A stretch of DNA of 64,000 bases from Nageia nagi (taxonomy: Eukaryota; Plantae; Pinophyta), in contig JBITNC010000001.1 of assembly GCA_050084985.1 (NCBI GenBank), positions 204,662,001-204,726,000 on the forward strand. The letters are read 5' to 3'. Both the position numbers and the translations under genes were made by a program. Each line of letters starts with the position of its first letter. Position 1 is the stretch's first letter. The notes beneath the pieces are model-generated. The model did no database searches, was not told the DNA's origin, and saw only the letters and a program-made list of their open reading frames with translations. This document shows, in pieces, positions 9,014 through 57,663 of the stretch.

Positions 9014-9018
9014 TGATG

Positions 9019-23931: not shown

Positions 23932-24421
23932 CTGCAAGAACAATACAAGCATACCCAGATGAAAAGTAAACAAGCATATACTGATCATTAAAAAGAAACC
24001 TCAGAAATGGAAAGATATAATAGTATCAAAAGCAAATAGTATGTTAAACTTGACCTTTCTTATATACTACAAGAATTTGTGAACAGTGATTTGTAGAAAA
24101 CATATCAGCCATTCTTGATAAAAACTCATGAGGTGCATCCCGTATGTGGATGCCAAGCTAGTTTTGAAAACTAGAATGCGGTATTTGTATAATTAACCCA
24201 TTACTAAAAGGCTAATGCAAATCCCGTCACCGACACCCCAATCAAACACAAGGGTAATTAAGGAAATAAGAAAAAATGCAACACTGTACTATAAAGATGA
24301 ATACCTAAGGAAACATCAATCAGCAAACCATGTGATCAGATTAGCACCGCAATGCAGTTGATAAATGACATTTTAATGAGAATTAAGCATAATGAAGTTT
24401 CTTGTTCTAAAACCAACTTAC

Positions 24422-24574
24422 CCATTTCTCACATCTTCATAAGAACTGTTGATGTGTGAGTCAATACCAAGGCTGTTTATCCAAAAGCGGAAGGCTCGTT
24501 CCTCTCTTGCAACTTCATCATCTTTCAGAGTCTGGGCAATGGATGCCTTACTTGAGTCCATTGACAACCCTTTC
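24422..24574 (-). CDS. FIM: Fimbrin exon (ABD1-ABD2 linker and start of CH3)
   Basis: KGLSMDSSK...AREERAFRFWINSLGIDSHINSSYEDVRNG; CAG and GTAAG boundaries; 153 nt, phase 2 to 2. Confidence 0.95.
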
Positions 24575-27179
24575 CTGAAAAATAATCATGAAAGTACAGA
24601 AACTGTGGTGAATTTAAATTTGCCTTAGGACTTCACGCATCAGAAGGAAATAAAAGCTTGCCCATCTTAAAGAGAACTAATGGAAAGCTTCAATGAGAAT
24701 TACGAGAACAAATAGAAAGATTTAACAAAAATTCTTTTATGTTCTTTTTCATGCAAAGACCTATACAATTTGAGTCAGTTTGACCATAAGCAAATAGGGA
24801 CAAAACAAAACAATAAAAGTAACTAAGTGGCAGATAACTGGCAAGGACGCAGACCCAGTGGATACTGAGTTACAAGAGAAACAGGCAGAAAAACATCACC
24901 ACCCAGATGAATATCTTATGAACCTAATACTAAATAATCAAAATAATGATAGGCAAAACATAAAAATTAGAAGCGCAACTTACATGGTGGAAGACCAATT
25001 TCAGCATCATAAAATATAATATAAAATGTTGCCCAATAATATATACTTATTTTCACAAACCTTTGGGCTTTTGCAGATGTAATGTTTTTTGAAAGAAGTA
25101 TAGAACATTTTCTTACCTTTTCCCAACAAAAGAAAAGTGGGACAAAACAATTATGAATTATCTATTTCAGTACATGGAGAAATCTTTACCTATTTTGGTA
25201 AACTCTCAATTGAAAAGTTATAGAAAACATGGAGCTCAACGGTAAGAAATACTTCCATGCAATTTGTACTTCTCACAGTAGTCTCTATTTATTTGCACTA
25301 AGATGCAATTTAATATGAACCTGCTAAAAGAAAGTCAACATGCTCTATTGAGTATCAAATTTTGTGCATGTATTATAGCAGTAATTCCAATATGCCATCA
25401 TCTGCATCATTTAGAAGTTAAGTGGTTTTATATTTAGACAGAGCATTAAGAGTTTAGATAGAATATGTGACCTTTCGGTGAGCAAAACATCTATATGATT
25501 AGCTAAAAAGATCAATTGTGTCTACTGCCCGACAACAAAGGCAACGAAATTGGGGGCTTAAAACTCTACATAATTTACAAATTAGGGCAACTACGAGGAT
25601 CATTATAACCACCTTGGCCATGTAATATTTCATTCAGGGCCCAAGTTTCCTTTGAAAATGTAATGATATTATCCTCATTTATAGAAGTTTGGGTGTTTCC
25701 AAACAAATTAGCAGCTCATCCTTACAAAAACGTGTCCTCTACAGTATTATTAAGATGAAATTGGAGAAAAAGTTTAAGCATACAGACTGAGCACATATTG
25801 AGTGGCTCTAGATTCACCTAGAGTAAATGATCCATTTGGCTGATAAATTGGCTGGGGAACATCATCAGAATCATCTTTCATTTCAAAAGACTCCGATCAA
25901 TTGGCAATTCTACAGTTGGTAGGGAGAGATATTTGTATATTTTACCGATTTGCTCATCTTAGTGATTGCATTAAGAGTCTAGGTGGTTGAGAACATTGCT
26001 GTTATTTCACTACAAGCTTCTTCATTTTTTGGCATCTCTAGAGACTTACATCCTCCCATCAAAGAGTATATATATCCACTGTATATTCTATTTATATGGT
26101 CCTCAACACTCTAATTTCTTCTCCCCATATGGTCTTTCTATGCCCAAAGTTTCTTGCAACTTGAGGATGGGATCACCACTCATCCAAGACATATTCAACA
26201 ACATTGACCCATGGCCTTGGGATTTGTTCTACCCGCACAACACACCCCAAGATGCAGCATTTTGGGGACCCAATTTTTTCAAACGGCATCAAGCAACATT
26301 GTCTGGGCATGATCAACTTACAGCCGATATGGAGACCCAAAGCGACGAGATGATCAAACAATGCAAGAGCATGCCCGAAGTCATGAAGAGAGTTCAGCTC
26401 AGCCAATGGCCAAGTCAGGGCCCTGTTTCAAGCAACATCTCACAAGATGGAGTTGTGGATCACGACAGCAACGAGACAGTGGAGTTTTGAACGAATAGCC
26501 ATCAGGCAAAAAAGTTGTCGTTTTGGCAAGTTTGAGCAACAAAGGTGCCAAGACAACAAAAGGTGCATTTTTCGTCAAGTTTGAGCCTAGGAGTAGTGGA
26601 TACAGTTAAGATGACGAAAATGCACATTTTGGTACAAATTGAGCCCGGAAAGGGTATCTATAGCCAAAGAGTGCGTTTTTGTCAATTTTGAGCCCAGAGA
26701 GCCAAAAAATTGTCAACACAAAAAAGCGCATTTTGGTCGATTTTGAGCCCGACAATGGTCAATATAGTGAAAATGTGCATTTTTGCACAATTTGGACCCG
26801 AAAAGCTCGGGAATGACCAAAAATGCAAGTTTGGCCTCAGAGTGCTCAGAAATGCTCGGGAATACCGGAAATGATCTTTTTTCACCGTTCAAGCTCAGAA
26901 ATGTCCGAAAATAGTTGAAAAGTGTACTTAGAGCCCGGAAAGGCCGAAAATGCACCGTTAGGGCCCGTAAAAGATGGGAAAGGTCGGGAATGTGCTATAT
27001 AGCCCGAAATAAATGAGGAAAGCAAGTTTGAGCGCCCTTGAGGTCTAAAATAAAAAAATGAGCAGTTTGGCATCTGGAAAGCTTCGGGTTGAGCCCGAAA
27101 AGTGAGTTTTTTCAAAGTGCTCAGAATGAAAATCCGAGCGAGAGGTGTGGTGACAAATGATGAATTAAGGCCATTCTAC

Positions 27180-28900
27180 TCTTGGAAATTTCGAAAAAAC
27201 TTGAGTTTTGACCCCCGAAAAGTTAGGGGGAGTTTTACAAGTTTTCCCTCAATCAAATTTCAAAAAATGGTCTATTCTCTTCAAAACCTGCGCCTACCTT
27301 TTAGGAGGCCCAGATTGATCCGAAATGGCCATTTTTGAGCTCAAGAGTGCAGAGATCATGATTCTACATCAAATTGGTTTTTCAAGTTCGCGATTTCGAT
27401 GAGTTTTGCTCCACCGAAAGTGAGAAAAATAGGAAAATGAGTAAAAGGACAGCCAATAGGAATGCTCCAAAATTTTGAATATTTCAAAATTGCAAAAACG
27501 AAAATCCAAAGATGAGGTAGGGTGGCAAATCAAAAATTAAGCACTTTTCCTCTTGGAATTTTCGAAATTGGGCAAATTTTGACTCTCCTAGAGCTAAGCG
27601 CTGATTTTGGGTGTTTTCCCTCATTTTTCAAATTTTTCAAAACACCCAAAATGTCTCAAAACCTGCACCTACCCTTCTTGTGCCCCAAAAGTTAAAAAAA
27701 TTGGAAATTTTGACCTTCAAGGGGTATAGGATGGGATTCCACATAAGATTGATGATTTGAGTTCTTCAAAAAAATGAGATCTAGCTCCTCAAATCATCAT
27801 AATGTGATTGGCCAATGGGAGAGCTCCAAAATATTTCTAAATTTTTCAAAGTTGGCCAAATAAAAAAATAAAAGTGAGGTAGGGTAGCAAATTTGAAGAA
27901 GACCAATATTGCCTCTTATAAATTTGCAAAAAAAACAATTTTTGCCCCTCGTTTTCCTAGGCAGCAGTTTTGGCATGTTTTCCATATTTTCCAAATTCCA
28001 AAAAAACATGCCAAGACTCTCAAAACTAGCGCCTAGCCTCGAAGCCTCCTTTTTGCTCAAAAATCAAAAAAAATGATCTGAGAAGCATGGGAAATCCAAT
28101 TTTGCATCTTTTTCAAGTTTCGAGTTTTTTTTAAAAAGCGGATCTACTCACCCAAAATGACAAAATTTGGATCAGCCAATGGGAAAGCTCCAAAATTTTC
28201 CAAATTTTTCAAAAAAATCTCAAAATCAAAATTGGAAAGAAAGGTAGGATGCAAAATTCCAAGGAGATCAACATTGCCTCTTGCAATGTTGCAAAAAAAA
28301 ACAAATTTACCTCCTCAAAAAGCTAGGTGGCAGTTTTGGCATGATTCCCCCATTTTCAAATTCTTCCAAACCATGCCAAATGTCCTAAAACCTGTGCCTA
28401 GCTTGCAAGCCCTCATTTTTGCTCAAAAATCAAAATTTTTGATCCTAGGAGCATGGGAAATCCAATTTTGCATCTCTTTCATGTTTCAAGTTTTTGGAAA
28501 AAAGTTGATCTACTCCCTCAAAATCCAAAAATTTGGATCAGCCAATGGGAGAGCTCCAAAATTTTCCAAAAATTTCAAAAATCCCAAAAAAACAAAATTG
28601 GAAAGAAAAGTAGAGTTCAAAATCCAAATGCAAGCATCTTTGCCTTTGCAAATTTGCTCAAAAACCAATTTTTGCCTCCCTAAAAGGTAGGCGCTGGTTT
28701 TGCAAGTTATACCCCATTTTGTTTTTTTTCCAAAACCTGCCTAAACATCCTAAAACCTGCGCCTAGCCTCCTTGGTCCCTAAAAGTGCCCAAAATTGATA
28801 TTTTTCACTTCTATGAGGTAGGTGGTGTGATTCTACACCATTTTGACCTAACATTTGTGCAATTTGGCTCACACAAATTCCCAAAAACCACTTTTTTGCA
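27180..28900. repeat. Tandem array of about 365-bp units (4.5-5 copies)
   Basis: AAAACCTGCGCCTA-like marker at about 27284, 27658, 28022, 28387 and 28752. GCCAAT(G/A)GGA marker at about 27450, 27812, 28173 and 28538. Confidence 0.85.
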
Positions 28901-29174
28901 TTCAAAAAGGATCTAAAGGCTGAGAAAACTCAAAAAATTTGGATTTCCTTCAAAAATCTCAAAATTCAAAATCCAAATCTGAAGCATGGAGGTTGTAGAG
29001 CATTCCAAGGCCATCATCTTTCCTTCCAAGACCCCCCATGTTGCTCCAAAACTGCCCCTTCCACACTTAGGCGCAGGTTCTGGGTTGTTTTCCCATTTTC
29101 CTCCACTTTTCCAACGTTGGGCATGAAAGGGAATGGTCTAAATTGCAAGTTTTTCACTTAGGGTTGATATGGAA

Positions 29175-29213
29175 GTGACATGTGACACTTTTGAACCCCT
29201 TGAGTCTATAAAT
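29175..29213 (+). promoter_or_regulatory. Putative core promoter of ORF-X copy 1
   Basis: GTGACATGT...AACCCCTTGAGTCTATAAATA, similar to GTGACACGT...AACCTTAGAGACTATAAATA in unit 2. Confidence 0.45.
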
Positions 29214-30074
29214 ATGACCATACCCCCTCTTTTTGGCTCACCTCTCATTTTTGCACCCTTATGCTGCCCAGATTTTTGAGAATTTGAGAGCCAAGTGAGA
29301 AAAGAAGCCATTTTTTCAGCCTTGGAAGATTTTTCAAACACTTAGCATCTTAGCCACTCACCCAAACTCCATTGAAATTCGAAATCCAAGCATCCTCCAT
29401 CCACATGAGCTCTTTTTTTTCCAAGTTTTAAGGATTTTTTCACAAAAACCCATTTTTCAAACCCTCAAACACTTGAAAATTTATTTTTTCAGATTTCAAG
29501 TTTGATCACTTTTTTAGATACGCTTTATCCATATGATCAACTTTTATTTTCAGCTAAAAAACACAAAAAATTCATAAGATCCAAGATCGGAGTACTCAAA
29601 ATCCTTATTTCTTGAAAAAAAAAATTAAATCCAAATTTTTTCAGAAAACTCCAAAAATTGTTTCTGAAGTCTATTTTGGCCATTTCAAAGTCTAAAACAC
29701 CTTCCCCATTCATTTTCCATCCATCTAAGGTGTCAAAACTTGATTCCAACACCATTTGCCAATTTTGCCAAATTTCACCACTTTTTCCTGTTGAAAAAGT
29801 AAACTTTTTCGAGAAAAAATTGAAAATTCTCCAATCATCCTAATTTTTTTACCAAGGCATTCCCCTTTGAGGCTGTTACCTTTGTGTAATCTCAAACTCA
29901 CCTAGAAAGCCTTGAAAATTGCAAATTACGACACTTTTCGATGATGGCACACTTAGAGTGAAAAACACCAAAAAAAATCCAAGTTCTTTAGAAACCCCTC
30001 TTTGCTTGCCTAGAAAGTGCCACAAGCTTCCCAGGACTCTTTTAACTCTTGTTGTTCTCTTAGACAGGGATATA

Positions 30075-32110
30075 ATGGTGTTAGTCGCTCAAAACATCAA
30101 AGATCGGAAGCAGAGAAGGCTCACAATGGACAGTCTCATCACGCTCGAACACACAACAAAGCCAGTAATGCCTGCCGCAAGAATCATAGACCAACTGAGT
30201 GAGATCGGGGACACAAATTATAACTCCCTCAATCCAATAAAAACTCTAATGAAAATCCAAGCATTGGATCCAGCTTCGCTAGCAAAGGACACTTTGAAAA
30301 CCTCCTTACTAGTAACAGATTCTATGGTGCCATTCGCCACCCCCTTCCTTGAGCTATGTTATGAGCTAGGAAAGCATTGTGACATCAGAAATTGGAGACT
30401 CCTCGATAGAAGGAATGAAGTAATCATGGACTTCTCTAAGGAATGAATAGAAAGCGCTTTAGCTTGGAAAAATGAAGGCCTATCATACAACATATAGGAC
30501 TCCTTAAGGTTCTCCAAAAGTTTGAAGCCCCCAGCTGATTTGGTCAGAGATTGGTTGGCTGACGACTGTAAGCACCTCATATCAATGCTTTCCAGAGTGA
30601 CTGGATAGAAAGACGACACAAAATTCGTAGGGTTTATAGAGTTGATTAGCACTGGTAGAGGCATAAGGTGGAGTAGAGTAATTAGTGATTTCTTGGCTCA
30701 ACAACTGAAAAATATCCAGAAGAGTAGGAAATTTTATATGAACTCCTACCTGGTTTACCTATTCCTTCACGGTAGGGAGAGGGTGACCTCAGTCGCCAAT
30801 ACCCAATATCTTTATGACCCCACACATCCATTGTGGAAAACTAACCACGGTTCTTTGTTCATAACAAGTGGAACGAGGGAAACTGGAAGATGATGACCAA
30901 CGATTTTGAAGGGAAAATTTACGAAGAGATCATGGGCAGAGCAAATGTACTCAGAATATCCAATAAGGCTGCTCCCACTATCAAGGGACATGCGGACTTC
31001 TTTGTAGAAAACATAGAGTTCACCTAACTCAGGGTCTATGGCTCCAAAGAAGCCCCTTACAAGCTACTCTGTTACGCAAGTGACCGCATCATCCTTATGG
31101 AATTTTCAAGACACTTGCTAAACGTACACAACAAAGTATGGGTAAAGAAGGCGGCGACCACTTACCAATTACCTATTGTCATCGGGAATTATGAATGCAC
31201 CACCTGGCGACAGATTGAAATGATCAAACAAGAACTAGCATTGTATGAATTCTCGACAGAAGTAGCTACGGATCACTATGATCCCGATGGAGTGATTGAT
31301 GCATTTTTCAAGAAGACTTGGAGTTCGTCATATCCACATCAGTCCCTTGGTAGCATTGAGAGATACGGGAACATTCAGGATGCCCTGTAGGTTCAACAGA
31401 TTCACAAGGAGCTGAAAAAAGAACAAAAACAACGTGAAGCCGAAGAAGCTGCTAGGATAAAAGCCAATGCACAAGTCATCGTACCCCCGAGCCATGGGTA
31501 TGTTATTCCAATAATATCCCCTTCAGTAACCCTGGCTCAAGGACAGAACAGGCAATATGCTACCAATAGCATCCCCGGACAAACCATTGAAACAACAGTC
31601 ACGGGTACGAGGAATGAAATTTTGGACCTCAAAAGAGCAGGCCTGATCTGTCAACCATTCAAACACTTGCAAAAAAAGATAAACCTCCCACAAGGATTGA
31701 ATCGGAGTGGTATGAGCCTAAATAAAAACCCTAGCACATCATCATCCAGTTCCGACAAATATGGACCGAGCGACTCATCGAAGACCGATGAAGAGATGGA
31801 TTTTGCTGCAGTCATCAACACCGACATGGAGATAAACCAAGATATTGCCTTTGAGCAGGCCGACACTGATCATTCAGTAGAAATCCTCAATGAGGGAAAT
31901 CCCTCAATCGATATGATTGTACAACAAGTAGCAGGAGCAAGTACCTCAAAATCCGCTCCTCGGAAATAAGCATCGTAAATGCCACCATCTCGAAGGACTA
32001 CGACAACATCAACTCAGAAGGGTACTTCAAGACCCAAGATGATGGCATCATCTTCAAGGGGAGATGATGGAAATCAAGAGGATGAGGGAGAAAATGAGGA
32101 ACAAGGGGGA
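30075..32110 (+). pseudogene. ORF-X copy 1: uncharacterised TE-borne protein, decayed
   Basis: Pieces 29919-30446, 30642-30893, 31097-31390 and 31622-31969 align colinearly with ORF-X copy 2 (VIMDFS, WSRVISD, FYMNSYLVYL, RVYGS, SDR.ILMEF, YDP.GVI). Confidence 0.75.
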
Positions 32111-32111
32111 A

Positions 32112-32349
32112 TGTTAGACACATAATCCTTAGGGATTATGGTATCTATAATATAGTAGTATTTATTTACTATATTTAGTAAATTCAGCTATAGGAATTTA
32201 CTTGCTTTTTAGGTGTAATAACGAAGTGCATATGAAGAGTCCATGTGTAATCCAAAGGTCACCTATGGAGGTGAATATGTAAAGTCATATTGTGATGTAT
32301 TTATTCTCATATCAAAGCTAATACAATGCCTTTTTATTGTGGAGTTACA
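32112..32349 (+). repeat. Short orphan LTR-like sequence (238 bp)
   Basis: TGTTAG...GTTACA termini, preceded by PPT-like AAGGGGGAA, with an internal TATA-like site. No TSD and no partner LTR. Confidence 0.5.
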
Positions 32350-34800
32350 CTTGGCCTTGCATCATTGAGATTGTTCTTGAAATATCGGTGGGACATCCAC
32401 ATGAATTCAAACTCGAAGGGAGTCCTTCTCATTTGCTGCATTTCAATTCTTAATTTAATCGGCCTATGACTAGAAGCAAATCTTAGGTAGAGATGATAGG
32501 ACTGAGTTTTGGTGTTCCTCTACCCAATTTACTGAAACAACCATTCTATCCAGACTTCTTTGGATGAAATTCTTACCCCATCTACAATTTGACCATGTGA
32601 ATCTATTTCCTTTCAAAGGGATATCTATAAGCTTTGACTCATTTAAGAAATCTCTCAAGTCCAGCATAACCCTAGTTATTGTTGTTTATCCTCCAAGTTT
32701 AAAGGAGTGTTGAAGTCTCCTCTAACTAGCCAAGGTTCAGATATAAATCCCATTCTATGGGCTTTTACAAAGTCCTAAAAATTTCTCTCCTTTAAATTGT
32801 TTGGTGCATAAATATTTGACATAACAAAGGAAACATTATCTTGGATATCGTTTACTCTCACTATGATACATCTTGGGGAAGGATAGTGGATTCTTTGAAC
32901 ATCAACATTATGGGGGTTCCACAAAATGAGAAGCCCTCCTGACTTTCCTAATGCATTACTGAATTCCATTCTTGAGTTTCTCCATATTCTTTTATTTATT
33001 TTTTCCTTGACAGTATCCTTAATTTTTTATTCCTGTATCATAACAATGTCTGGTTTATGTTTCCTCCATTAGTTCCTCACAACTTTTTGTTTGTCGGGGA
33101 AGTTGCAACCCCTTATAGTCCATGATAAATTGATCATTTATTCCTCCTAGCAGCTTTCCCGTCTCCACTTTGCTCTGTAGTGTTTGATCTCTTTTTCTTT
33201 CCAATGTTTTCTCCTTTCCCTTTCCTTCTCACCTTCAAGCTTTTTCTTGTATTTTGTATTAGTTTGGAGTCAGGTATATCATTTTCTGTCATAATTATTT
33301 TGCATCTTCTTTCTTCTTCTTATCGATCTTCTTTCCACTTTGATGGATTCATTAGATTCCCTATCTTTTGATTCTATCTCATTTTCATTCTTTGTTTCTT
33401 CCTCATCTTCTTCCATTTGTTGCATTCTTACTGAGAGGCTATTAGAAATATCATTCAATTGTCTCTCTCTTACTTGTGAGATAGTCTCAACTTCCCCCTC
33501 CCAAAATTAATTCTTGTTGCTACCTCGCTATAAGTGGGTGTAGATACCTTTTTGGCAAATTTTGGAGTATGCACCGTTGTTTTACTAGGTGTGGTTTCTT
33601 TCCTCACCTCCATCTTTGTTTGAAGAGTTGTCACTTCTGAGGATTGACGTAATGGTTTGCTTGCATTTTGGATCAGTTGAGTTCCTTCTATTCTTTGAAC
33701 ACTTGTTTCTTTTTCCTTCTCCTTCCAATACTATTCCATAGTTTCAAAGGTCTTACCCATTTGTTGTCATTTGGAGTTTTGTCCATTTTCAGATCTTTTC
33801 ATCATGCAAACCTTTGTTTCATGGTATTCTTTGTTACATATACTATATCGTTTGTTCCTATTTTGTGTTAGAGGACATTGTGAAGCTATATGGCCAATCT
33901 CATGGCACCATCTGCAATGAAAGAGGACTCTCTCATAGTCCAAGGATTGCATCCATGCCCCCAATTTAGTGTTAATCTTGATCTTCCTTGCGAGGGGTTC
34001 CTAGATATTAAGGTTCACACAAATTCTTGTTGTCATGGCATTCTCCCTTCTGAAGAAGTTTTCATCGATCTTTACATATTCTCCGATAGCATCACCAATG
34101 ACTCTAATCACTTTCTCGATCCAGAGGTGTTGTGGTAGATAGTAAAGACGCACCACACTAGCACCGTCGTGATGTTCTCAATCCATGGGTTGAAACCCTC
34201 ATGCCATCTTTTAACAAAAAGACCATAATTTCCCAAAAAACAATGGTCGTTATCCAACACAAAAGAAACATCCTCTAGTTCTAAAAAGTAAGCTGCAAAG
34301 AAACCCTTAGGGAGGATAGTAAAGCTTACCTGGCCTTTTAGTTCCCCTTTGTCCTGGGCCCATGTTTTGAGGGTTGAAATGCCTGGCCAATGGCCAGTAA
34401 ATTTCCCCACAAGGCACAATTGTAGTTCTTCAAGGGTCTCCTCAATCAACTCATCATCAATATTGATTTCTGGAGTTGTTTCTTTCAGTTTGCACAAGGT
34501 GCCACTTCCTCCTTTGTCCGCTCTACCCTATCCCACAAAACGTTGATTTCCAAGACTGTTCTTGTTCCCTATTCCCTACACCTAGCTAAACGTTTTGCCA
34601 CCCTTTTCCCATTCGCTTTGTCCACCTACCACTCCCAAATCCGTCCCAAAACCAACCCCCTTTTCAGAATATCTGCTACTCGATCCTCCTTGCCTATCTC
34701 CCCCGTTGTCCTCCCTTCATCCCATTTGGTCCTCCAACTTGCCTCCTGTTCCGCTGCCTGCACCTTTCCCTCCATTTGCCATTTTCAAAAATCTTTGCTT
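32350..34800 (-). mobile_element. L1-clade LINE with 5' portion retained (ORF1 plus endonuclease of ORF2), RT missing
   Basis: ORF1 DUF4283-like LCLVGKFTG...VKRWHEGFNP and knuckle CRWCHEIGHIASQC. Endonuclease motifs GKSGGLLILWN, NIYAPN, GDFN, FTWSN, LDR and PFEFEFMW. Confidence 0.88.
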
Positions 34801-35002
34801 TTAACAAAGGAATATAGAAATGGAACAAGAACTTTCCAAAACAAAAGTTTGATGGAAGATACAAAATCAAAAAGGCAAAATTTTACCACAAAAAGGCCCT
34901 CATAATTCTATTAAAAATATTGTCACAAATTTCGAGATGGTGAAAAGAGAAAGGTAGCAAACCAATATTAAAAGCATAATTGAATTAACAAGTTGACCTC
35001 TT

Positions 35003-35963
35003 TGTCATGTGCCTTTTTTCAAGCTATGCCTTTTGACTTTGGCAATGACCTAAGGGGTCCACTTAGAGCTTGATGTCAACCCTTAGGGGACATCCAAGCA
35101 CATGATAAATGTAATTTAGAGGTGAATTTGGTAGATAGGAGCTTTTATTGATAGTTTCGCATGTATTTAGGCATCTTTGTAACCAAGCGAAGGGAATTTG
35201 TGGGTCCTAGAGACCAATTTGTAAGCCCAATGTGGGATGTCTCACTCCTTGGATAGATAATAGGTTTTTAGTAATGTTATGATTGATTGTTGAGATCCCG
35301 AGATTGATTATGTACATCCCAAGACAAATCCAGGCATTAGAACATTGGTGCCAAGCACTTGATGACTTCTAGGTGAGATCTAGAAATCAAGGTAAGGCAT
35401 CTAGCTAGTTATAGACCCAGTGCAAGGTTGAGAGAGAGCTTATGATGATTTCTAATATTTGTCTTTGACATTTGGGAGTTGGTGTGAGCTATCTCTTGGG
35501 CCTCTTGTTGGACAAAAACCTAGCAAGAGAAGAATCTAGTGGGATGCAACCCCTACCAGATTTAGAAGCATTACTTCTATCGACTCGTGGAGCACCAAGT
35601 GTTAGGAAAAGCACTTTGGTGGAGCACCTAGCTTGTCTGAGGAAGTAGAGCTTCAGTTATTCATTTCTAGATCTGGGTGAGAGACCCTAGTGCAAGATGT
35701 TAGCCTTCTGAGAGCATTTTTGTTGTTTGATCTACCCTCCATAGCTAGACTTCAACCCTATTGGGCCATATATGCATTGTACTTGCTCCATTTGATGATA
35801 TATTGATACGTAGGCTTTTGGATCTCATATTTTGTGTGGTGTTTGAGCATCATTATGTGACATTGGCATTTTTGCATTATTTTTGAGCCTAGAAGTTGCC
35901 CTAGTTAGTTTGTTGCATTTTTGGCTTAATAATTTCGGCATACAAATATTTTGGTTCATCATA
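35003..35963 (+). repeat. Chromovirus 5' LTR
   Basis: Direct repeat of 47322-48282; 10 differences in the first 120 bp, mostly transitions. Confidence 0.95.
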
Positions 35964-36282
35964 GTGGTATCAAAGCCTGATTTTGCCAACCTATGGAAAT
36001 GGAAAAGAAAGAATCCTTCAGATCTGCATCAAAATTGAAAAAGATGGACACAACTGTAGACATGATGTCAAATTGCTTGAAACAAGCAAGAGGAGATAAG
36101 GGAAAGCAAGGATGAAGATCTGCAACATAAGGGCATCACACAAGGTAGAGAAGGTGGAGAAAGGACAAATCTAGAAGCTCCAACGTGTCCATCAGCCACT
36201 TTCCCACCACCACCTCCTTGGCCACACTTGAGCCAAATTTATAACCCTAGCCCTCATGGATACGTCCGACTCTTAAAGGAAA

Positions 36283-36555
36283 ATGAAGTGTCATGGAGAG
36301 ATGAAGAGTTCGAGTCTAGAGAGGGTTCCACACTTTGATCGTGAAGGGAAGATCTCTCCTAGGGCATGGTTGCAAAGGCTACAAGCATTTACCGCCCTCA
36401 ACCGCCTATCAGCGGCAGATTCAATGCAAATGGCCATCTTATATCTAGATGGAGTGGCGCAAGCATGATGGCACCATGGGGAAGAGACCGAGGATCATAG
36501 TTTCATTTGCTCATTGGAAGAGTTTGGCCAACAAATCCTAGATCACTTTGATATC
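36283..36555 (+). pseudogene. gag: Chromovirus gag, N-terminal part up to the nested insertion
   Basis: RVPHFDREGKISPRAWLQRL...YLDGVAQA*WHHG...QILDHFDI; the reading continues at 44033 as KDEEEYFLDLVSLKQQGSL. Confidence 0.85.
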
Positions 36556-38462
36556 TATTGTGCCTGCACAACACCCCCCAAAATTCTACATTTTGAGGAC
36601 CCTCGTAAAATCAAACACAAATGCATCGAAGAAATTTTTTCTAAGGGAATGCATGAATCATAGTCCAGTTAGAGGAAACATGTTAAAATTTGCACGTCCA
36701 TGATCAAATCCAGTCAAGAAAATGGCATTTTTCCTTAGGCGCATGTTTTGAGGGACATGCTTTTGCAAGTCCCCTAAAACGTGCGCCATCCTTCATTCTG
36801 CATTTTTAGTGTTCAAACTTGCATTTTTGGCCATTCAAGTTGCATTTTCAGGTCCATCATGCAGCAAAATTCATCCCCCTTCATTTGCATTTGCATTCGG
36901 GAATCATTCTGGTCAAGTTATCAAAGAAAAATCATGTTTTTCCCCAAAGTTGCATGTTGGTGCAACCAAGGAGGTGGACGTCACATACTTAGAATTTTTT
37001 TGAAGTCATTCAGCTTGCAAGGAAAAAGAGCAAGGTGCATGTTTTGAGGGACACGCTTTTGCATGTCCCCTAACAGTGTGCCCAAGGAAATAAGGCTCTA
37101 TACTTAGTCATTTTTTTAGCAAAGTTCCAAAACAACCTAGGTGCATGTTTTGAAGGACTTGCTTTTGCATGTCCCCTATATTGTGCACCCAACTTCAAGG
37201 AGTCAAATTTGGCTAATGTTGAGCTCCGACATTGACAAGTGTGACTACATGCATTTGACCCCAACTTGTACCAATCACAAGGTGACACCTATCCATCCCA
37301 GAGAAGGCTATAAAAGGAAGGTCAACCTCAGTTAATTAGTTTGGAAAGCTAAGTCTGGAAGCCTACGTGGAGTGAAGGAATGAAAGCACATCCCCTAAAA
37401 TGTGTGCCCTATTCCAGATTGCAATTTTTCAAGTCAATTTCATTTTTTTAAAGGTTTCCTACAATGGGAGGCATGCCATAGGCCCAAGTGCACCATTTTT
37501 GGTACATGCTTGGGCACCCACTCCAATTGGTGAGCCCGATCCCAAACGCCTTGGCCTAAGGGTAAAATTGACTAAGTGTGGAATTTAACTTAAGGAGGGC
37601 CAAACGCATGCTTTCAGGTGCATGCTTTTGCACCCATCTCAAAGGGTGCGACCAAGAAACAAAGCTTTCAAGTGGTATGAAAATTGACTAAGTCTTTTGT
37701 CCTTGGGCACATACATTCCAATACATGCTTTTCCACACCTCTCAAACTATGCGCCCTTCATTCCAGCCCCATCATTTGACCTCAATTTCAACCAAACAGA
37801 GGGTGACACGTTGCAACCTTAGAGACTATAAATACTAAGTCACCCCTTAGTCATTTTCATTACTTCATTTCAGATTAGCACCAAGATCCCTAGTCGCACC
37901 ATTCCAGGGACATGTTTGAGCACTCATCCAAATTGATGCACCAAGGAGAAAGGAGTTAAAGGCTTTCTTGTACAACCAATTAGCCATTTTTGGCTAAGGC
38001 ATTTCATTTCGAACCCAAGGAGCTGAGGCGCATACTTTGCAATATATGCTTTTCCACTCACCTGAATCCATGCACCTAGGTGTGAAGTGATGAATTGTGC
38101 CCTAAAATTGACTAAGTGACCAAGATTCCCAGTCACATGTTTTCTAGGCAATGAAAAAGCACCCATCTCAAACCATGCGCCTTGCGGTTAGGAGCTAAAA
38201 TTGACTAAGTGTGAGATGCCAAGAGTTGAGAAGTGAAGAAAACAAGTGGCAAACATACATTTTGCCATGCATACACTCCATGCATCAACTATAAAAGAGG
38301 GCAGCCTTGATTCATTTTTGTTGGATGTTCTGTAACCCAAACCTACACGTTTGGCCTCTTTTGCTACATCCTTTAGGGTATTCAGATTGATACTTAGTCA
38401 GTTTTTGAGGCATTTCCATCCATTTTCAGTCCTTTTCCTCCTCATTTTTTCAGGATTCAAAC

Positions 38463-41400
38463 ATGACTTCCAAAATAAGACCGCCCCCACTCAAGGCCAA
38501 GAAAACTCAGGGGCAGTTGTTTGAAAGACATGTAACTAAGGATCATATGACAAGGCTCTTGAGAGAGAGTCAGATAGAGTTTCAAGAAAGGGAAAGACCA
38601 AAGCTCCCTAAAGCCAAATTCAAGGGAGATACATCTTCGTTGGAGACACAGACTAGGGAAATGTTGACCCCATCCAGACCATAGCCTCCACTGCCTCCAT
38701 CAGTAAGGAGGACCCATTAGATGAACTCATCCACACCTATGGATTGTTCAATGCCACCATGATGTCTTTTGTAGTTCCATTTCATAACTTGTGCTACAAG
38801 GTAGCCAAGAGATGTAAATTTGACAAGAGAGTCCTCCAGGACACATAGGGGAATGTGATTATGGATTTCTCCCTCGAAGGATTTGAAGCAACCTTTGGCT
38901 GGAAAAGATATGGGGACGATTATACATTGGAAAATTCAGAAGAGTTCCATGATTCCACTGCCCGGCCTGGGGACTACATAAAATCATGGCTATATGAAGA
39001 TTATCTAAACATCCAAGGCCATAGATTGGTCAGCGCCCGTAGGGGTGAATTCCTGCCTATTGTGGCCAAGTTGATCACTTTGTTGTCCATAGTCACAGGT
39101 TGAGAGAATGACTCTAAATATAGGAAGGAGTTTACTGGATTCATTGCAGTAATCAGCTCAAGGAGAGCTATCATATGGAGTAGGGTGATCAGTGATGCCC
39201 TGCATCACCAACTAGCTTACTTTGGCTCTTCGAGAAGATTTTATATGAACTCCTATCTTGTGTATTTGTTGTTGCATGGCAAGCTCAGAACCAAAGAGCT
39301 TGCGAATGAAAGGTATTTGGGTAAGAAAGGCATTCCTGTGTGGCAGGTTTACCCAAAGTGGTGGTATCACAACAAGTTCCAGCATTTCTATGAGAGAAAT
39401 GATCAGTGGGAGTAGTCCATCTATAAATACATCAAAGGGGAATCAATTGTTAAGAGGATTTCTGATGATGCCATTCAAGCCATCAATGCATATGCAGATT
39501 TCTATCTGCAATATATTGATCATACATCCATCAGAGTTTATGGTTCCGAAGAGCAACCCCTACTGCTGCCCAAATATATTAGTGACAGACTCATTCTCAT
39601 GGAGTTTGCTAGATAGTTGTTGTTTTTGAAGGAACGAGTATGGAGAAAGAAGAATGCAACTATCAACTTGCCCATCTCCATCGCAAATTATGTTTGTTAG
39701 ACGTGGGTTGAGGCCAGCAATATGAAAAAGGAGCTGCAACAGTACATCTTCTTCAAGGAGATTACAGCTAGAAATTATGATCCTAGAGGTGTGATTGCTC
39801 ATTTCTACAACATTCCAGAAACCAATCACTTTTCAGCACAAATCTTTAGGGAATGTGGAGAAGTATAAAATGTGTAGAGTGAGAAGGAGATTACAAGAAT
39901 AGATGCTCTTTTAAGAAAGAATAAGACCCGCCTCTAGGCATAAAGGCCACATCAAAAACCACACACTATCAAAGCATGATCTAAAGAGGTCCCACTCAGG
40001 ATCAAGACATCTACTCCTTCCACTAGTCCCGCACAAGACAGAGTGCCCTTGCTTCCTATTGGCAAAAGACAAGGAGCTCCAAGGGAGCACACCCCAGGCC
40101 CTAGCAAACGTAGTGTAGTGATGGCCGATTTGAGAGATGTTGGCTACCGCACTGTCCCCTTGAGCATGCTAGAGGAGGCCTGTGCCAATGATTCACCCAA
40201 GGAAAAGTTCCCTCGCCGCAACCAAGTTCCAATTCTTCTAAGCATTCCACTTCTTCTTTCGATGCAAAAACTGATGAGGAACTCGTCCGTACAGTAGAAG
40301 ACTCTGACGAAGAGACAAAGAGCCAGAGGAGTGATGAAGAGAGCCATGGTGAAGAAGAGGAAGAAGAAAGAATATGATGATGATGATGATGACAACGCTG
40401 CTGATGAACAGTACCCCGAGCAAGACAACGTAGTTGCAGGTGCTTCTGCACCTGATGAGACGAAAATTAAAACTCTCCAAGATAATGATGAGATTGTGGA
40501 TGTTGGGACCTATGATGATGAGGTCCGAGTTGTTGGAGTAAAGTGTGCCAAAGAGGTGGGTGCCTCCAAACTATCTCCTGCCGAGCATACAAAGAGGTCA
40601 CCCTCGTCTTCCCAGAAGCCCTCCAGGAAGAGGACCAACCCTGAGAGATCCCCTCAACCACGAAAGAAAGGCATGTCAATTGGTGGCGATGGCAAACACG
40701 AAGATGATGAAGGGGAGACTGAAAAGCAAAAAAATAAGAGAAAGCAAGACGAACACCCAGGCAAGGATGTTGCCCTTGTTCGGACTACTCCGACCAAAGA
40801 GGTCAAGAACATCAGCAAAGGTCAATTGTTGGTGCAGAGGCTCCCTCCTTACCCAGCAACCGAACATTCGAACCTTGACCTGGATGCCTACCTTAGAGGC
40901 CTCAGCACGAGTACGGCTCATGATGAGGAGATAGACCAGGACCTGCGTTCTAAGGATGAAGAAGAGGAGCTCTCCGATGGTGAGAAGATTAGAAGAGTAT
41001 ATACATTTGTTTCCACCTCCCGAAAGGAGATCTCCATTAGTCATTGCTATTCAAAGGAGAAGCATCCTCAAAGGGCAGAAGATTGTGTGATTGAGATGTT
41101 TACGATGCCTATAAAGTTGGGATTGACGGCCCACAAGAACATATATACTTAGAATGTTGCAGTCATGGAATAGGAGAGCTATGAAGCCAAAAAAGAGGTG
41201 AAGAGATTGAAGAAGAAAATCATGGCCAGCAAGAAAACCATCAAGGAGTTCCAGAACATCAATACCAGCCCTCTTGATCTAAAGAAGCAGACCTTGTTCC
41301 AGGAAGGATGGGAGTTGATGAAGGAGGAGTTGAAGAAGGAGATGATGGAGACCATTGAGAAGTTATCTTCTCAAATCTACAGCCTCCTCAAAGAAGATGT

Positions 41401-42020
41401 TGAAATCTAGGAGCTCAAGTCCCAAATCACAGCACACCTCGAGAAGTTGTGCTGAAATCTAGGAGCTCAAGTCCCAAACATTAGTAACTCCCTAACGTCA
41501 CCTACTTACAGCAAAGTTTGCCGACTGGCTCGAGAAATTGGTCTACTTCAATGAATTTACTTACCATCACGACTGGTTGAAGCATGCACTTGAAAAGTGC
41601 AATGCAGTTTTGAAACTCAGAATCCCCTTGAAGAAGCAAGTCGAAGAGCAAATGAGCACATATGTCTACCAGCTCAGGTTCTAGAGGGAGAATAACAGCG
41701 TGAGGAAAAAGGAGGCAGTATTGGCAAAGGCCCAGAATTTGATCCAAAAGCATCTAGACGTCGATGACCTCAGTTTGTTGAAGGCAGGGCATCCCATCAT
41801 CCATGAGAGACAGATGGTCATCTAGAGATACCAAATGCAAGCTACATCCATACAAATCGGGGACTATTTTTGATAGAACAATAGCATTGTTGGCATGATC
41901 TCCAAGGGTGTACGGAAAACCATGGCATTTTTAGAGGAGACCATTAAGTCGTACGGTCTCACCAGCAAGGAGTGGAACTCCGTCGATACCGAATCATATT
42001 TGGCCTATTGAAATGTATAA
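38463..42020 (+). pseudogene. ORF-X copy 2: about 1.2k codons with conserved N-terminal domain, acidic low-complexity middle and coiled-coil-like C-terminus; decayed
   Basis: Colinear ORF pieces 38463-38684, 38855-39103, 39185-39415, 40331-41152 and 41198-41410. Polypyrimidine tract plus CAG at 38451-38453 just before the ATG. TATAAAT at 37827. Confidence 0.75.
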
Positions 42021-42227
42021 TGCATTATTGTAAAGGTTTGTATTAAATCTTCTATGTAAGTTCACTAATACTTAAGGGTATCATTTGATACCTTAAGTAT
42101 TTAAGTGAATATGATAATGTAACTTGTCCTACACTCCATGTCATGAGCATGCCCCTTGGGTAAAAGGATGTGCATGTCATGCTTTTGTACATTGGATAAA
42201 AGGGTGATCCAAAGAGGGATTTTAGCC

Positions 42228-42234
42228 TATAAAT
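42228..42234 (+). promoter_or_regulatory. Putative main LTR TATA box (U3/R boundary region) of unit 2
   Basis: GCCTATAAATAAAAAG lies downstream of ORF-X and is followed by about 1.8 kb of T-rich R/U5-like sequence. Confidence 0.45.
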
Positions 42235-44032
42235 AAAAAGCTCCTTTTTTGTGATTACACACCAATTGTGGAGTAAAGTTATGCCATAGGATAGTGGTTA
42301 GGAGAAAAGAGTAGGAGGATTGTAAAAGATTCATGTTTGTGAATGAAGTGAGATCTAGTTAGTGGATGTACTCCTAGTTGGAGGAACCACTTACATCGTG
42401 TGTCACTTTGTGAGATTGTCTTATTTGTGAGTTTGTTAGATGTGTATTGTGAGCTTTCATGTGATCTTGGGTGTTTAGGAATTATCTTGTTAGTGTTAAT
42501 TCCTTCATGGCCTAGATCCAATCCACTCACAAATTCTGTTTGCGATAATCTTTGTTTTGTTTAATGCATATCGATGATGGTGGTTGTTGTTTGTCATACT
42601 TTATTTACTTGATTTGATTGGTGTAGGGTTGAGGTTTTGCTCCCGCCAGATCAAATCCGTCAGACTCATTTATGACTATGACCGATGCAGGGATGAGGTT
42701 TTGCTCCCTCCGGTTTAACTGTCAGACATTTATTGCATATTTGATCTGCTTTTGCGTAGTTTAGAGGTAGATTAAATGCATTTTGGTAGTGGCATTTATA
42801 TTTTGTTAGTTTTTAAATGCCACTTGCATCGTTTTATGTGAACAATTTGATTTTGTATTGGTATGTGTGTTGCATGTGTGCACACCATATCGGATTTGAT
42901 GCCTTTAGGGCAACACTTCTAGTGGCCTATTTATACCCGATTAAGGCCATTTAGAAAGGGATTTTTGCATTTGGATGCACGTAATAGAATCTTTGCATAT
43001 TGACGATTATTACATTTTGGAATGTCTGTAACAAGTTTTTGCATATGTAAGGAATTTTGAGACTATTGCACCTGCTATAATTGAGGATTTCTACATTTTG
43101 AATGTGTAACAAGATTTTTACATATGTTTGGGTTGTTGCATACGTAAGGCTTTGCATTTGTAAAAACTGAGGACTTATGCATTTGTAAAGCTGAAAAATA
43201 CAACATATGTGTCATTTCTGCATATTATTGCCTATCTGTAAAGGTTTTGCATATACGTGAATTTGCATCCGAAAGATTTCAGCATTCCATTGCATAGAGG
43301 TTTGTTGCATAAGGGATTCTATGCATATTATGTCATTTAATATCATCATGAATGGATTTCTTTCAAGAATAAGGTTATAAAGTAAATACTGTGAAGATTG
43401 TCATTTGTGGGATCATGTATGTCTGAATAGTTTTCCTTTTGAAGCTGCATATTGAATATTTGTTGAAGTGGTTTAAGCTATTCATTGCATGGTTTGCACA
43501 AAAGTGAATGTATGTTGAGGAGTATAGCTTGTCTCTATATCATTCAGTTAGGCTTATGTATTCACGCCCTCAATTCATTTACCGTTGTTCCACCTAATCT
43601 CGCACCAAAACCCTACAACTTCCTGCTCTCGTCTGGTAGCAATTTGAGCGCATATTGCTATTTGTTTCCCGGCTTGATAGTGAATACACTTCCATTAATA
43701 AATCCGAAGATGACCTACCAAGACACTGCATCATCGATGATATCTTCATAAGTTCATCGTTCTTTATATTCCTATGCATTTATCCCTACATTTGTGATCT
43801 TTCTTTGCTTTCGTTCACGTTTGCAATCTTTCCTCATTGTGGAAAACGAACTCCAGTGGTGTATTTCCCTTGTATGCGGTTAACAACATGCATCTCTGAC
43901 CATTGTGCCCTAGAACATATTCCATGTGAGCGCTTGGGGTAACCAGTCCTTTCAAGAGGAAAAAAATAACATTATTTCCTCCAAGTCTTGTGCATATTTT
44001 GGGCGAGAAAAGAAAAACATACCAACAATATC

Positions 44033-47321: not shown

Positions 47322-48282
47322 TGTCATGTGCCTTTTTTCAAGCTATGCCTTTTGACTTTAGCGATGACCCAAGGGGTCCACCTAGAGCTTAACGTCACCC
47401 CTTAGGGGACGTCCAAGCATATGATAAATGTAATTTAGGGGTGAATTTGGTAGATAGGAGCATTTATTGATAGTTTCACATGTATTTAGGCATCTTTGTA
47501 ACCAAGCAAAAGAAATTTGTGGGTCCTAGAGACCAATTTATGAGCCCAATGTGGGATGTCTCCCTCCTTGGATAGATAATAAGCTCTCAATAATGTTATG
47601 ATTAATTGTTGAGATCCCAAGATTGATTATGTACATCCAAAGATAGATCGAGACACTAGAACATTGGCACCAAGCACTTGATGACTTTTAGGTGAGATCT
47701 AGATGTCAAGGTGAGGCATCCAACTACTTATAGACCCAGCGCAAGGTTGAGAGAGAGCTTATGATGATTTCTGATATTGTTCTTTGACATTTCGAAGTTG
47801 GTGTGAGCCATCTCTTGGGCCTCTTGTTGGAAAAAAACCTAGCAAGAGAGGAATCTAGTGGGACGCAACCCTTGCCAAGTTTAGGAGCATTACTTCTATC
47901 CACTCGTGGAGCACCAAGAGTTAGAAAGAGCCCTTTGGTGGAGCGCATAGCTTGTCTAAGGGAGTAGAGCTTCAGTTATTCATTTCCAGATCTGGGTGAG
48001 AGACCCTAGTATGAAAGGTCAACCTTCTAGAAGCATTTTTGTTGTTTGATCTAGCCTCCAAAGCTAGATGTCAGCCCTATTGGGCCATATTTGCATTGTA
48101 CTCGCTCTATTTGATGATATTTTGAGACGTGGGCTTTTGCATCTCATATTTTGTGTGGTGTTTGAGCATCATTGTGTGACGTTGGCATTTATGCATTATT
48201 TTTGAACTTGGAAATTGCCCTAGCTAGTTCGTTGCATTTTTGGCTTAATAATTTTGGCATAAAAATATTTTGGTTCATCACA
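47322..48282 (+). repeat. Chromovirus 3' LTR
   Basis: TG...CA termini, preceded by the PPT and followed by TSD CTCTT. Confidence 0.95.
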
Positions 48283-48864: not shown

Positions 48865-49181
48865 TACTAGTAGCAGAACTCTGCGAGTTTGGCAACTATT
48901 CACAAATAAACTAATCAAACCAATTGAAATTGAGTACTCGCCGCTCTACCAAGACTCTTTTAGTTAACTGAGTTTTGATAAAATGTTCACAAGATGTTTT
49001 CTGAGTTATGAATTTTTACCATGTTGCGAGTTTTTGTTGGACTTTTTGTCCAGCAACTTTCTTTTTCACAGGAATCGAAGTTTTCCTGAGTGTTTGCCGA
49101 ATCTGAGTTTACTATTATAGTTCTTTTTCACAGGAATCGAAGTTTTCCTGAGTGTTTGCCGAATCTGAGTTTACTATTATA
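48865..49181. mobile_element. Probable hAT-type MITE with a perfect 61-bp tandem duplication of its right end
   Basis: TAGTAGCAGAACTC versus GAGTTTACTATTA inverted ends and GAGTTT subterminal repeats. 49059-49119 is identical to 49121-49181. Confidence 0.5.
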
Positions 49182-49863
49182 CTGTAAATAAAAATCAGCT
49201 AGAGTGCCAGTCACCTTCATAATGTTAAACTGCCATGATTATTATGATGATTATATGATTCAACTAAGAAATAAACATTGAAATGAACGTTCCATTAGCA
49301 CTTGAAACATCCATGCTTGATACGATAGTAAACTGAAGAACAAAAGTGTTAAGACTGATAAACTACTAGCCAAAAACTTTGATCTTAAATATTTAATCTA
49401 CCTATAGTAGCACAATTTTTCCTAGAAATTTAGCTTTTTTATTTTGATTATATTTCCAACACCTTTCAATTTTAAGTTTTGAAGTTTCCCATTTCCTAAG
49501 ATTTAACTACTTTAGCTTTACATTAAACTTGCTATCATGTCTCCAAAAAGATTATAATTTGGAAAATAATATTACCATATATATTGTAGTGAAATATGAT
49601 ATTTCATAACAATCAACAAATACAAAGAATATCATGATTCATAGACAAGTAACAAATAGTCAATAGTTTTATCTCTCACTCCCTGTTAGGCTTCAGTAGT
49701 TATTTTCATAGCAGCTGTGTAACTATGTCTGAATAATATTATGTACACTACGAGTGGGGAAATGGTATTTTACAGATTGTTCTCTTCGGTGCACAAGACA
49801 TTGATCAAATACTTTACATGCAAATCAACATAAAGAGGCAAGAGAAGTGCATAAGTTCCTTAC

Positions 49864-50075
49864 CTTTGATGGAAAATGTGAGCAACAAAAGCAAGGTTTA
49901 AATTTGTAGATCCCTCAACAATGTCCTTAGGCGTCAAATATCTTCTACAGTTGATTTTTTCTGCTTGCAACAGAATTAGTTTAGCTCTTTCCATAAGGTC
50001 CTTGGATTGCAAGGGAGACAAATTGCAGGACTCTGGCGCAAGGGCATTTAGCAAATAAACATATGCTTCTCCATC
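49864..50075 (-). CDS. FIM: Fimbrin exon (CH2), the most 5' exon in the window
   Basis: DGEAYVYLLNALAPE...RRYLTPKDIVEGSTNLNLAFVAHIFHQ; CAG and GTAAG boundaries; 212 nt. Phase 2 joins the exon starting at 24574. Confidence 0.97.
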
Positions 50076-52459
50076 CTGTACTCCAGAAAACCAAATTGTG
50101 AGATCCACATATATGATAGGAATGATCCATCCACATACTGAAAGAATTATCATATAATCAATGCAAAAAATGTTCTTTTGGTGCCTGCTGAAAGCTGTAA
50201 TCAACATAATACATTTTTTATTTATGCAAAATTCAAGTTTGATATAACAGACATTGACAATTTTGAGTCATAAAAATTCAATGAACTAAATATTGTATCC
50301 AACATAGGTTAATCCATACTTCTCTGAAGAGTTGACCATTGCATAAACATTTTGACATGTTTATTTTTTCAAAAATAGACAAAATTAAAATAAAATAGAA
50401 AAGTCCACATCTGTTGAGCTTCAAGAAAGCCAAGAGATATGTGGGAGTTAAAAAACTTCCATGAGAATCCAACTGGCATGGGAAACTAAAGAAGTATACC
50501 CCAAATATATTATGTTATACACTTGTTTCTTTTTTTTGTATGTGGTGTTTCTGTGTGTATGTACTCAGAATGTATTTACTAATTTGAAAACAATACAAGA
50601 CTCCACTGAAATACCAAAATCTAGTCTTGAATTTCTTATTCTGCTATGTCAATCTATGTATGAGATATCTTCATTTGGTTTTGCTAGATTGGTGTCGTAC
50701 TTATTGGGTGTTTAAAAGTAATTCCCAAAATGAATAAGTGCAATCAAAGTCAGCAAAATTAACATTTTGTACCAGAGACAGTTGGAATGTAGGTTGCGAA
50801 AAATCATTTTTCTTCCCAAAAGAAGGTTGGAGAGTTTTTTCCAGTGTCATTTGTGAGCTATGATGGCAAAACACAAAGGCAACGCAAACCTTCCTTTTTC
50901 TGAGTTTAATAGTGAAGACTATGATTATTGGAGCATCAAAATGCAGATTCTCTTAAGGTCTAAAGCATTGTAGACAAGTGTGAAAAATCAGTGTGTTCCT
51001 CCAAAGGATAGCAAGATCTTGTTAAAGGCTGATAAGGACACCAAGGAGAAGGAGCAAAATAATTTTTAAGCATTCTACAACATCCTTTCAGCCTTGGATA
51101 AACCTATTTTTTCTCTTGTGAGAATCATGGGAACTGCAAATGAAGCTTGGAAAGCTTTAAAGGATTCCTATGGTGGATCAAATGACCAAATCAAAATTAT
51201 GAGGCTTCAAAGTGCATTTGTGAATCTCAAGATGATCGAAGGAGAAAAAATGGAGGATTTTGTACGAGTCAAAGATCATGTTAACAAGATGGCCAGTAAT
51301 GGAGAAAAATTGGACGATTCGGTTACTTGCAAGAAACTATTGAGGTCATTTCTCCCAAAGTTTTGCTAACTCGCAACAGTGCTTGAGCATACCAAGGACT
51401 TTAAGAAACTGAAGTTTGATGAACTTCAATGAGCTCTTGTCATATGAAGAAGGCTTGGAGGAGGATGAAGTCACTTTTGACAAGGATCTTGCCTCGAAGG
51501 CAAGTGTCTCAAAAGGAGCCTGTTTTTAGTTCCAAGAGCTAAGGGAAAGGCCAAGAAAGTGGAGCTAATGGGTCTAAGGGGAACAGACAACCAAAGAAGA
51601 AAGGTCTATTATGTCACTATTGCAAGAAACCAAGCCATTTTACAAGAAAAAATAGACAAAAAGTTGTTGATAAAGGAAAAGTCGTAGAAACAAAAAAACA
51701 AGGGAGCTAAAAGCAAACATTGTCCATGAAGTGGATGAAGATGATGATGAAGAATTTATTTTCTTGAAAATTAATAAATTTGAAAATTTATGTTCTTGAA
51801 AATTAATAATTGAACTGTTGACTCGCGTTGTTCCAACCATGTGATAGGAAAGAAGGAGCTCTTCACCAAGTTGGGCACTTCTCATAGGAGTTAGTTGAAG
51901 ATTGATAACATGATTGCACTCAGTGTGCATGGAAAAGGAGTCATGAAAGAGAACACTAAGCATGGTAAGAAAAAAATGCTTGTTACATACTATGCTCCAA
52001 ACATGAAATATAATTTGCTTCTTGTGGGACAACTTACAAAACATAAGTATGAGATCACAGTCAAAAAGGATCAGCTTGGGAGGGTTGTCTACTTCATCTT
52101 GGAACATGGTAAAATTGTGACAATGGTTCCTATGACCAAAAATAGAACTTGGTTTGGAAACCTTAATGTCTCTAGTTTGAACAGAATGTCCACCAAAGAA
52201 TTGGTACTTGGGCTGCCAGTTATTGAAGAAAATAAGGATTTTTGTGAGGGGTGTGCTTCAAGAAAGCATGCTACAAAGAAATTCCCAGATTTGGAGGGCT
52301 TCTGCAATACTTTAGCTTGCGCACACCAATCTATGTGGACTCATGAACAAACCAAGCATTAGTAAATCTTTTTATTACATGTCTTTGATTGATGATTTAT
52401 CAAGAAGATGTTGGAGTTTCTTTTTGAAATCCAAAGATTAGGCATTTGGTGAAGGAATT

Positions 52460-57410: not shown

Positions 57411-57663
57411 ATATTATCATAGAGCCAACATCCTAAGGGCATGACTTTACATGAAAGAGGAGATTAGCTTCATAGAAGAAACTGATACTCGAGCACATTG
57501 TGAATTGTCTAAGGGTAAAAAAAGTTGTGGGGCAAACCGGATGTTTAAGACTAAGCACGAGAGTGATGGAAGTGTTGAAAAGCACAAGGCTAGGTTAGTG
57601 GCAAGAGGTTTCACACAAAGAGAAGAAATAGATTATGATGAGAACTTTGAATTTGTAGCTAGG

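Follow-up and report, generated by a model that had tools for sequence, protein, structure and literature searches.

A single 7.47-kb insertion in a 64,000-nucleotide stretch of the Nageia nagi genome (hereafter the window) is likely the solo LTR left by a plant gypsy element of the Tat/Athila type. It carries a decayed protein-coding gene, termed ORF-X, which on the evidence of the sequence probably lies inside the LTR, in U3. Structural modelling suggests that the encoded protein has a VANC/PMD-type fold, which we consider probable, and the two properties in combination remain the favoured reading by a smaller margin of confidence. ORF-X is likely a Tat/Athila-type accessory gene that was relocated into the LTR.

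Structure of the insert and its setting

The insert occupies positions 36556-44027, starts with TATTG and terminates with CAACA. These ends are of the TG...CA type with a short inverted repeat, one substitution away from TGTTG, and they are flanked by the perfect target-site duplication ATATC (36551-36555 and 44028-44032, plus strand). The host reading frame resumes across the insertion site, with the 5-bp duplication around one copy. An earlier note, made from the letters alone, had reported the LTR-type ends and the duplication, and both are present. It had also described the insert as devoid of terminal direct repeats, PBS, gag and pol. Self-BLASTN agrees for the repeats. Motif scans and tblastx revealed neither a PBS or PPT nor gag or pol, the one exception being a weak PBS-type match on the minus strand within ORF-X. 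The interiors of four further retroelements in the window gave zero tblastx matches to the insert, and no ORF of at least 120 amino acids was located on either strand outside the ORF-X span.

The 5' terminal motif (36556-36610) is followed by a U3-like region (36611-38462) with diverged repeat units, motifs of about 50 bp and six TGACTAAGT words, which form a candidate binding array. TATA-like sites occur in this region at 37309, 37827 and 38290. A pyrimidine tract with an AG (38430-38453), a candidate splice acceptor, precedes the ATG of ORF-X at 38463. ORF-X extends to 42515 including a nested LTR and is succeeded by a 3' untranslated stretch (42516-42905), which lacks a purine tract followed by TG. 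A TAGGGCAAC ... CTATTTATA site (42906-42935) and an R/U5-like tail with the terminal motif of the lineage, ...GAAAA...CCAACA (42936-44027), complete the insert; all of these features are on the plus strand. The repeated motifs, the TATA at 37827, the acceptor AG at 38452-38453, the ATG and the decayed ORF were found as previously described. Two of the TATA-like sites, those at 37309 and 38290, had been overlooked, as had the lineage-type promoter site at 42906-42935.

The nested piece is a 502-bp solo LTR of a different, very abundant repeat (42006-42507, plus strand) with the ends TATTG...TTCA and a TGGCC duplication at 42001-42005 and 42508-42512. Without it the insert measures 6,965 bp. Five related loci, L001-L005, were found among 245 candidate stretches; L001 and L004 lack the nested LTR, and their alignments stop at 42007 and restart at 42508. 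In 4 of the 16 listed sequencing runs, whose contigs were too short to cover the insert from end to end, summed contig depth, which does not equal copy number, reached 87,000-360,000 over the nested LTR, compared with 6-1,800 in the bins between 36567 and 41906. The nested LTR also contains a long internal palindrome near 42065-42105 and is almost free of CpG (o/e 0.07). A second TATA, at 42228, had been counted as part of the large LTR by the earlier note; it was rejected as promoter of the 7-kb LTR since it belongs to the nested one and is missing from L001 and L004. The site near 42928 is instead the likely main LTR promoter, judged by its TAGGGCAAC...CTATTTATA-type match to the gene-less LTRs, L004 and L005. 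It is located 1,101 bases before the insert end, and similar promoter-like sites are found 985 (L005), 1,030 (L002) and 884 bases (a 2.6-kb gene-less LTR) before the respective ends, i.e. at 0.9-1.1 kb in all four; in the L004 LTR the distance is 2,234 bases.

The gypsy element into which the insert is integrated is complete: its LTRs, at about 35003-35963 and 47322-48282, are 89.8% identical, it has a CTCTT duplication, and its PBS lies at 35965. A Pfam scan of the interrupted host gag pieces yielded no name, the left piece having been read in the wrong frame, and the label "gag" therefore rests on the position between PBS and pol. Minus-strand host exons with a calponin homology domain (Pfam E 3e-13) lie at 49860-50080 and about 24420-24580; we take them to be fimbrin-like. 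The entire nest seems to be contained within one intron of about 25 kb. Other occupants of the window are a minus-strand LINE remnant (about 25975-34900, DUF4283 E 6e-8) split by an element at 26225, an LTR pair at 418-9014 (about 0.7 kb each, 84% identical, with a 7-kb interior between), a tandem array of 68-bp units (57596-58274) and an exact 62-bp tandem duplication at 49059-49181, possibly an assembly artefact.

The identity of the insert ends was assessed by comparison with gene-less LTRs. L004 harbors a 3.95-kb gene-less LTR on the minus strand that is followed by a PBS; its first 100 bases matched the insert with a score of 59 and its last 150 bases with a score of 45 (0 of 200 shuffles in both cases). 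The resemblance to the 2.6-kb solo LTR at 61065-63652, which the earlier note had proposed for both ends, was clear at the 5' end (score 52, 0 of 200 shuffles) and weak at the 3' end (score 28, 2 of 200). Two controls, the host LTR and the nested LTR, scored at chance level. A profile built from three gene-less LTR starts matched at 36558 (E 6.7e-7), at 26235, where a second ORF-X-type element begins (E 2.9e-6), and at 55439 (E 1.1e-7), so that the 5' terminal motif of the insert is common to the gene-less LTRs of the lineage. The corresponding 3' profile matched the ends of L002 (E 9e-4), L005 (E 0.04) and, weakly but in the right position, the insert (E 0.085). Gene-less LTRs with the same ends are found with lengths of 1.5, 2.6 and 4.0 kb, one of them followed by a PBS. 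The 2.6-kb copy, on the minus strand, is indeed a gene-less solo LTR as the earlier note had described it, with a CCATG duplication and repeats that are palindromic. Also of this lineage is the 1.49-kb solo LTR at 55439-56925, which has the flanks AATAC/CATAC and lies within a copia-like integrase region. Gene-less LTRs in reverse orientation occur in or beside ORF-X elements at two of the five loci (L002 1-1687; L004 103-4054 and 14791-14899). Assignment to the Tat/Ogre/Athila (OTA) group is likely, judged by the length of the LTR, the non-Met PBS of L004 and the type of ORF. Ogre LTRs of up to 6.5 kb are described in the available part of PMC6431247.

The ORF-X protein and the upstream motif array

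After removal of the nested LTR, ORF-X comprises about 1,180 codons (about 3.5 kb) with a natural stop at 42513-42515, directly after the nested piece. The copy in the insert is dead: about 20 stops interrupt it, and the frame changes at least four times. However, dN/dS was 0.08-0.35 in seven of seven pairwise comparisons, with most changes at third positions; by this measure ORF-X is a real gene with purifying selection in its past. The pyrimidine tract and AG upstream of the ATG recur in L001 and L004. A folded N-terminal domain, an acidic low-complexity middle and a charged helical C-terminal part make up the predicted protein, and an intact relative of 1,010 amino acids (P0111) shows the same layout. 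A profile search with the ORF-X family retrieved 295 clusters at E <=0.001. An earlier search of 7,990 candidates had yielded no longer homologue, a negative of little weight; the profile search later found the intact one.

Sequence-based searches gave no name for the protein. Neither PMD (PF10536) nor Transposase_32 nor ATHILA of Pfam matched any of 3 window segments or 17 relatives, none of the three was present among 25 of the 28 families listed for 90 ORF-X members, and a sequence search of the PDB returned 0 matches. No usable match was obtained from the named Atlas clusters. An Atlas lead to Transposase_32, at 0.81, stayed under the Atlas bar, and the Atlas taxonomy reached no further than Streptophyta.

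Two structural models were compared with known folds: one of the relative P0026 (25% identical, E 5e-32), folded with 90 of about 157 sequences, chosen by their length, and one of the window's own N-terminal domain (38702-39601, plus strand), folded with X at stops and 89 sequences. Their pLDDT values were 86.6 and 86.4, respectively. Against 48,161 chains, the single clear structural match of both was the anti-silencing factor VANC21 bound to DNA (9lnk_A), with Z 8.4, rmsd 4.3 and 232 aligned residues for P0026 (next Z 2.8) and Z 7.1, rmsd 4.3 and 220 aligned residues for the window domain (next Z 3.2); values of 7-8 are middling, fall within the tool's stated range for models without a clear match and may be due to chance. 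Identity to VANC21 is 6-10%, and the two matches are not independent because both alignments have most rows in common. Foldseek comparison of the models with the PDB and with viral models yielded nothing at E <=0.001. The fold of VANC is also that of MAIN, a PMD protein, according to the available text of PMC13547354, and PMD-coiled-coil extra ORFs are described in Tat elements in that of PMC4408406. Together with the VANC21 match, this suggests that ORF-X is likely a distant member of the VANC/PMD superfamily.

Repeated 50-bp units are present in the 1.9 kb upstream of ORF-X. The word GYGCAKG, chosen post hoc, occurs there at 3.7 per kb, compared with 0.34 per kb in the first 26 kb of the window, and TGACTAAGT, likewise chosen post hoc, is found in six copies in the 1.9-kb U3 and in none in the remaining 62.1 kb. 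In a 9-mer census of GC-rich words the excess was marginal (four copies against a shuffle maximum of four). Such repeats need no adjacent gene, since gene-less LTRs have similar ones. VANC21 binds dense arrays of short motifs in the non-coding DNA of its element and reduces methylation there, as stated in the accessible portion of PMC5735166. From the predicted fold and by analogy with VANC21, an anti-silencing or transactivating role may tentatively be proposed for ORF-X, though we hold it to be somewhat short of an even chance. About as likely is a general chromatin-binding accessory factor that is encoded in the LTR and serves integration targeting or a particle or nuclear function, rather than being aimed at its own U3 repeats. 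A common fold proves no function; the VANC fold is shared by MAIN-type silencing proteins (PMC13547354), and the functions of Tat PMD-coiled-coil ORFs are given as unknown in the part of PMC4408406 that was available. On the other hand, the only match with a solved structure binds DNA in a sequence-specific manner, and ORF-X adjoins a family-specific motif array as in the VANDAL elements (PMC5735166, available part).

Position of ORF-X relative to the LTR

In the insert, the whole ORF is positioned between the LTR start and the putative main promoter. The 3' side of this arrangement is also found in L001, L004 and L005, three of the five related loci, where the ORF-X stop leads into the LTR tail without an intervening purine tract and LTR start; the similarity of L004 extends beyond the promoter site to 43565, and L005 continues to an LTR-type end. 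The 5' side recurs in a second element of the lineage at 26225-32104, which has the same 5' motif, 365-bp tandem units, a TATA near 29207 and an ORF-X homologue from about 30074, and which is truncated at 32104. Its protein is about 40% identical to that of the insert and the element is about 80% identical to L002 and L003. The order start, repeats, TATA and ORF is thus common to both elements.

Alternatively, ORF-X could be a typical extra ORF from the 3' part of the internal region, equipped with a promoter of its own, and the insert a deleted or recombined element that kept the LTR start, the ORF and the LTR end. We regard this as unlikely, although L002 provides an argument for it: here the stop of the relative directly precedes a purine run and TGTTGG, and a CCAACA end follows 1,194 bases on, so that the run is possibly a PPT in front of a 1.19-kb LTR. 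A purine run before TGTTG occurs twice in the 128 kb of window strands. An internal location would also agree with the available parts of published work, in which Tat/Athila extra ORFs are internal (PMC7264820, PMC4408406) and the same location is given in reviews for extra ORFs of plants (PMC7264820, PMC6317226), and a two-LTR copy was not found among the five related loci. However, an internal ORF should be followed by an LTR start, and in two subfamilies the start was observed before the ORF, while neither the insert nor L001, L004 or L005 shows a PPT and LTR start behind it. Because the element at 26225 has the same order, two separate double deletions would be required. The L002 tail, moreover, matches the 3' part of the 55439 solo LTR (58% over 444 nt, E 1e-9), and as that LTR has the usual start of the lineage, the short-LTR-like tail of L002 is possibly a relic.

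That ORF-X arrived once, by an independent insertion nested in a short LTR, is very improbable and largely excluded. Such an origin would fit the gene-less LTRs with the same ends (1.5, 2.6 and 4.0 kb) and the frequent nesting in the window, but copies at dS 0.5-2 have both ORF flanks in common, the ORF remained under selection in that setting, and the 502-bp LTR is the only nested piece found to have a duplication.

The U3 position of ORF-X is therefore likely and yet unproven, because no full-length element was found and because of the purine run and TGTTGG after the L002 stop. None of the five loci contained a full element or both ends together with ORF-X, and L003 is interrupted and uninformative about the position. 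Further loci were absent from viral contigs (none among 206 candidate stretches in one scan and none among 281 in another) and prokaryote genomes (0 of 87), and a pattern of LTR end plus PBS had 0 matches in either collection, both of which are poor in plant DNA. The earlier note had placed the gene in U3 of a solo LTR, a reading that fits the anatomy and the relatives; its downstream promoter was misplaced, and the PPT-like run of L002 speaks against the U3 placement. It had named short LTRs with an internal ORF-X, or an ORF-X nested with its own duplication, as observations that would contradict this placement. Neither was observed in the subfamily of the insert, where ORF-X lacks a separate duplication and diverged copies still have it joined to the LTR tail.

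Proposed mechanism and known systems

In the proposed course of events, ORF-X would have been captured by an LTR in ancient times. A full element with two 7-kb LTRs would have inserted into the host gag, and LTR-LTR recombination would have removed the interior and left one LTR. Transcription from an upstream TATA (38290 or 37827) might produce a spliced ORF-X mRNA with its 3' end in the R region of the same LTR, and the site at 42928 might give rise to genomic RNA. By binding to the repeated motifs of U3, the ORF-X protein would maintain the activity of the family's LTRs, and it could also activate gene-less LTRs in trans. The complete scheme, an LTR-borne counter-silencing module consisting of a VANC-like DNA-binding gene with its own promoter and an adjoining target motif array, in which solo LTRs retain the gene and trans-activate gene-less kin, is doubtful in its entirety.

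If true, it would be a retrotransposon counterpart of both VANDAL/VANC and retroviral LTR genes. A gene in U3 would be present in two copies per element and would survive LTR-LTR recombination, the main removal route of the host, and annotation tools that expect short non-coding LTRs would overlook such copies or wrongly annotate them as host genes. Extra ORFs are widespread in plant gypsy elements, and for ORF-X the link to VANC21 and the candidate array make binding to the own LTR directly testable. No plant ORF inside an LTR was found in the literature searched, though Repbase, Steinbauerova 2011 and the supplements of PMC6317226 (REXdb) may list some.

The closest known proteins are the PMD-coiled-coil extra ORFs of Tat/Ogre elements, as far as they are covered by the available text of PMC4408406, PMC6317226 and PMC5418596. 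They share with ORF-X a globular N-terminal domain, for which a VANC/PMD fold is predicted in ORF-X, and a helical charged C-terminal part, and their elements resemble the insert in long LTRs and a 5-bp duplication. However, these ORFs are described as preceding gag or as lying between pol and the 3' LTR, whereas ORF-X is apparently in U3, and the extra ORF of gymnosperm lineage III is antisense, whereas ORF-X is sense and lacks a Pfam PMD match. The gene of VANC21 in VANDAL21 (PDB 9lnk), like ORF-X, lies beside short repeated motifs in the non-coding DNA of its element (PMC5735166, available part). In contrast to ORF-X in a retroelement LTR, it belongs to a VANDAL Mutator-like DNA transposon, its motif is a different one, identity is 6-10%, and the binding and demethylation documented for VANC21 (same source) would be conjectural for ORF-X. 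The LTR-type ends and the 5-bp duplication argue against ORF-X being encoded by a VANDAL transposon. Gene23 of maize Grande is an accessory nuclear protein with its own promoter, as read here for ORF-X, but it is antisense and internal in the description available (PMC7264820), and as an internal gene it is lost on solo-LTR formation, while ORF-X is sense and apparently in the LTR. With respect to position, MMTV sag and partly HIV-1 nef are the nearest parallels, since the available text of PMC12789967 describes an entire ORF in U3 and additional promoters upstream of the main LTR promoter. The sag product is an unrelated membrane superantigen, however, whereas ORF-X is a gene of about 3.5 kb in an LTR of about 7 kb.
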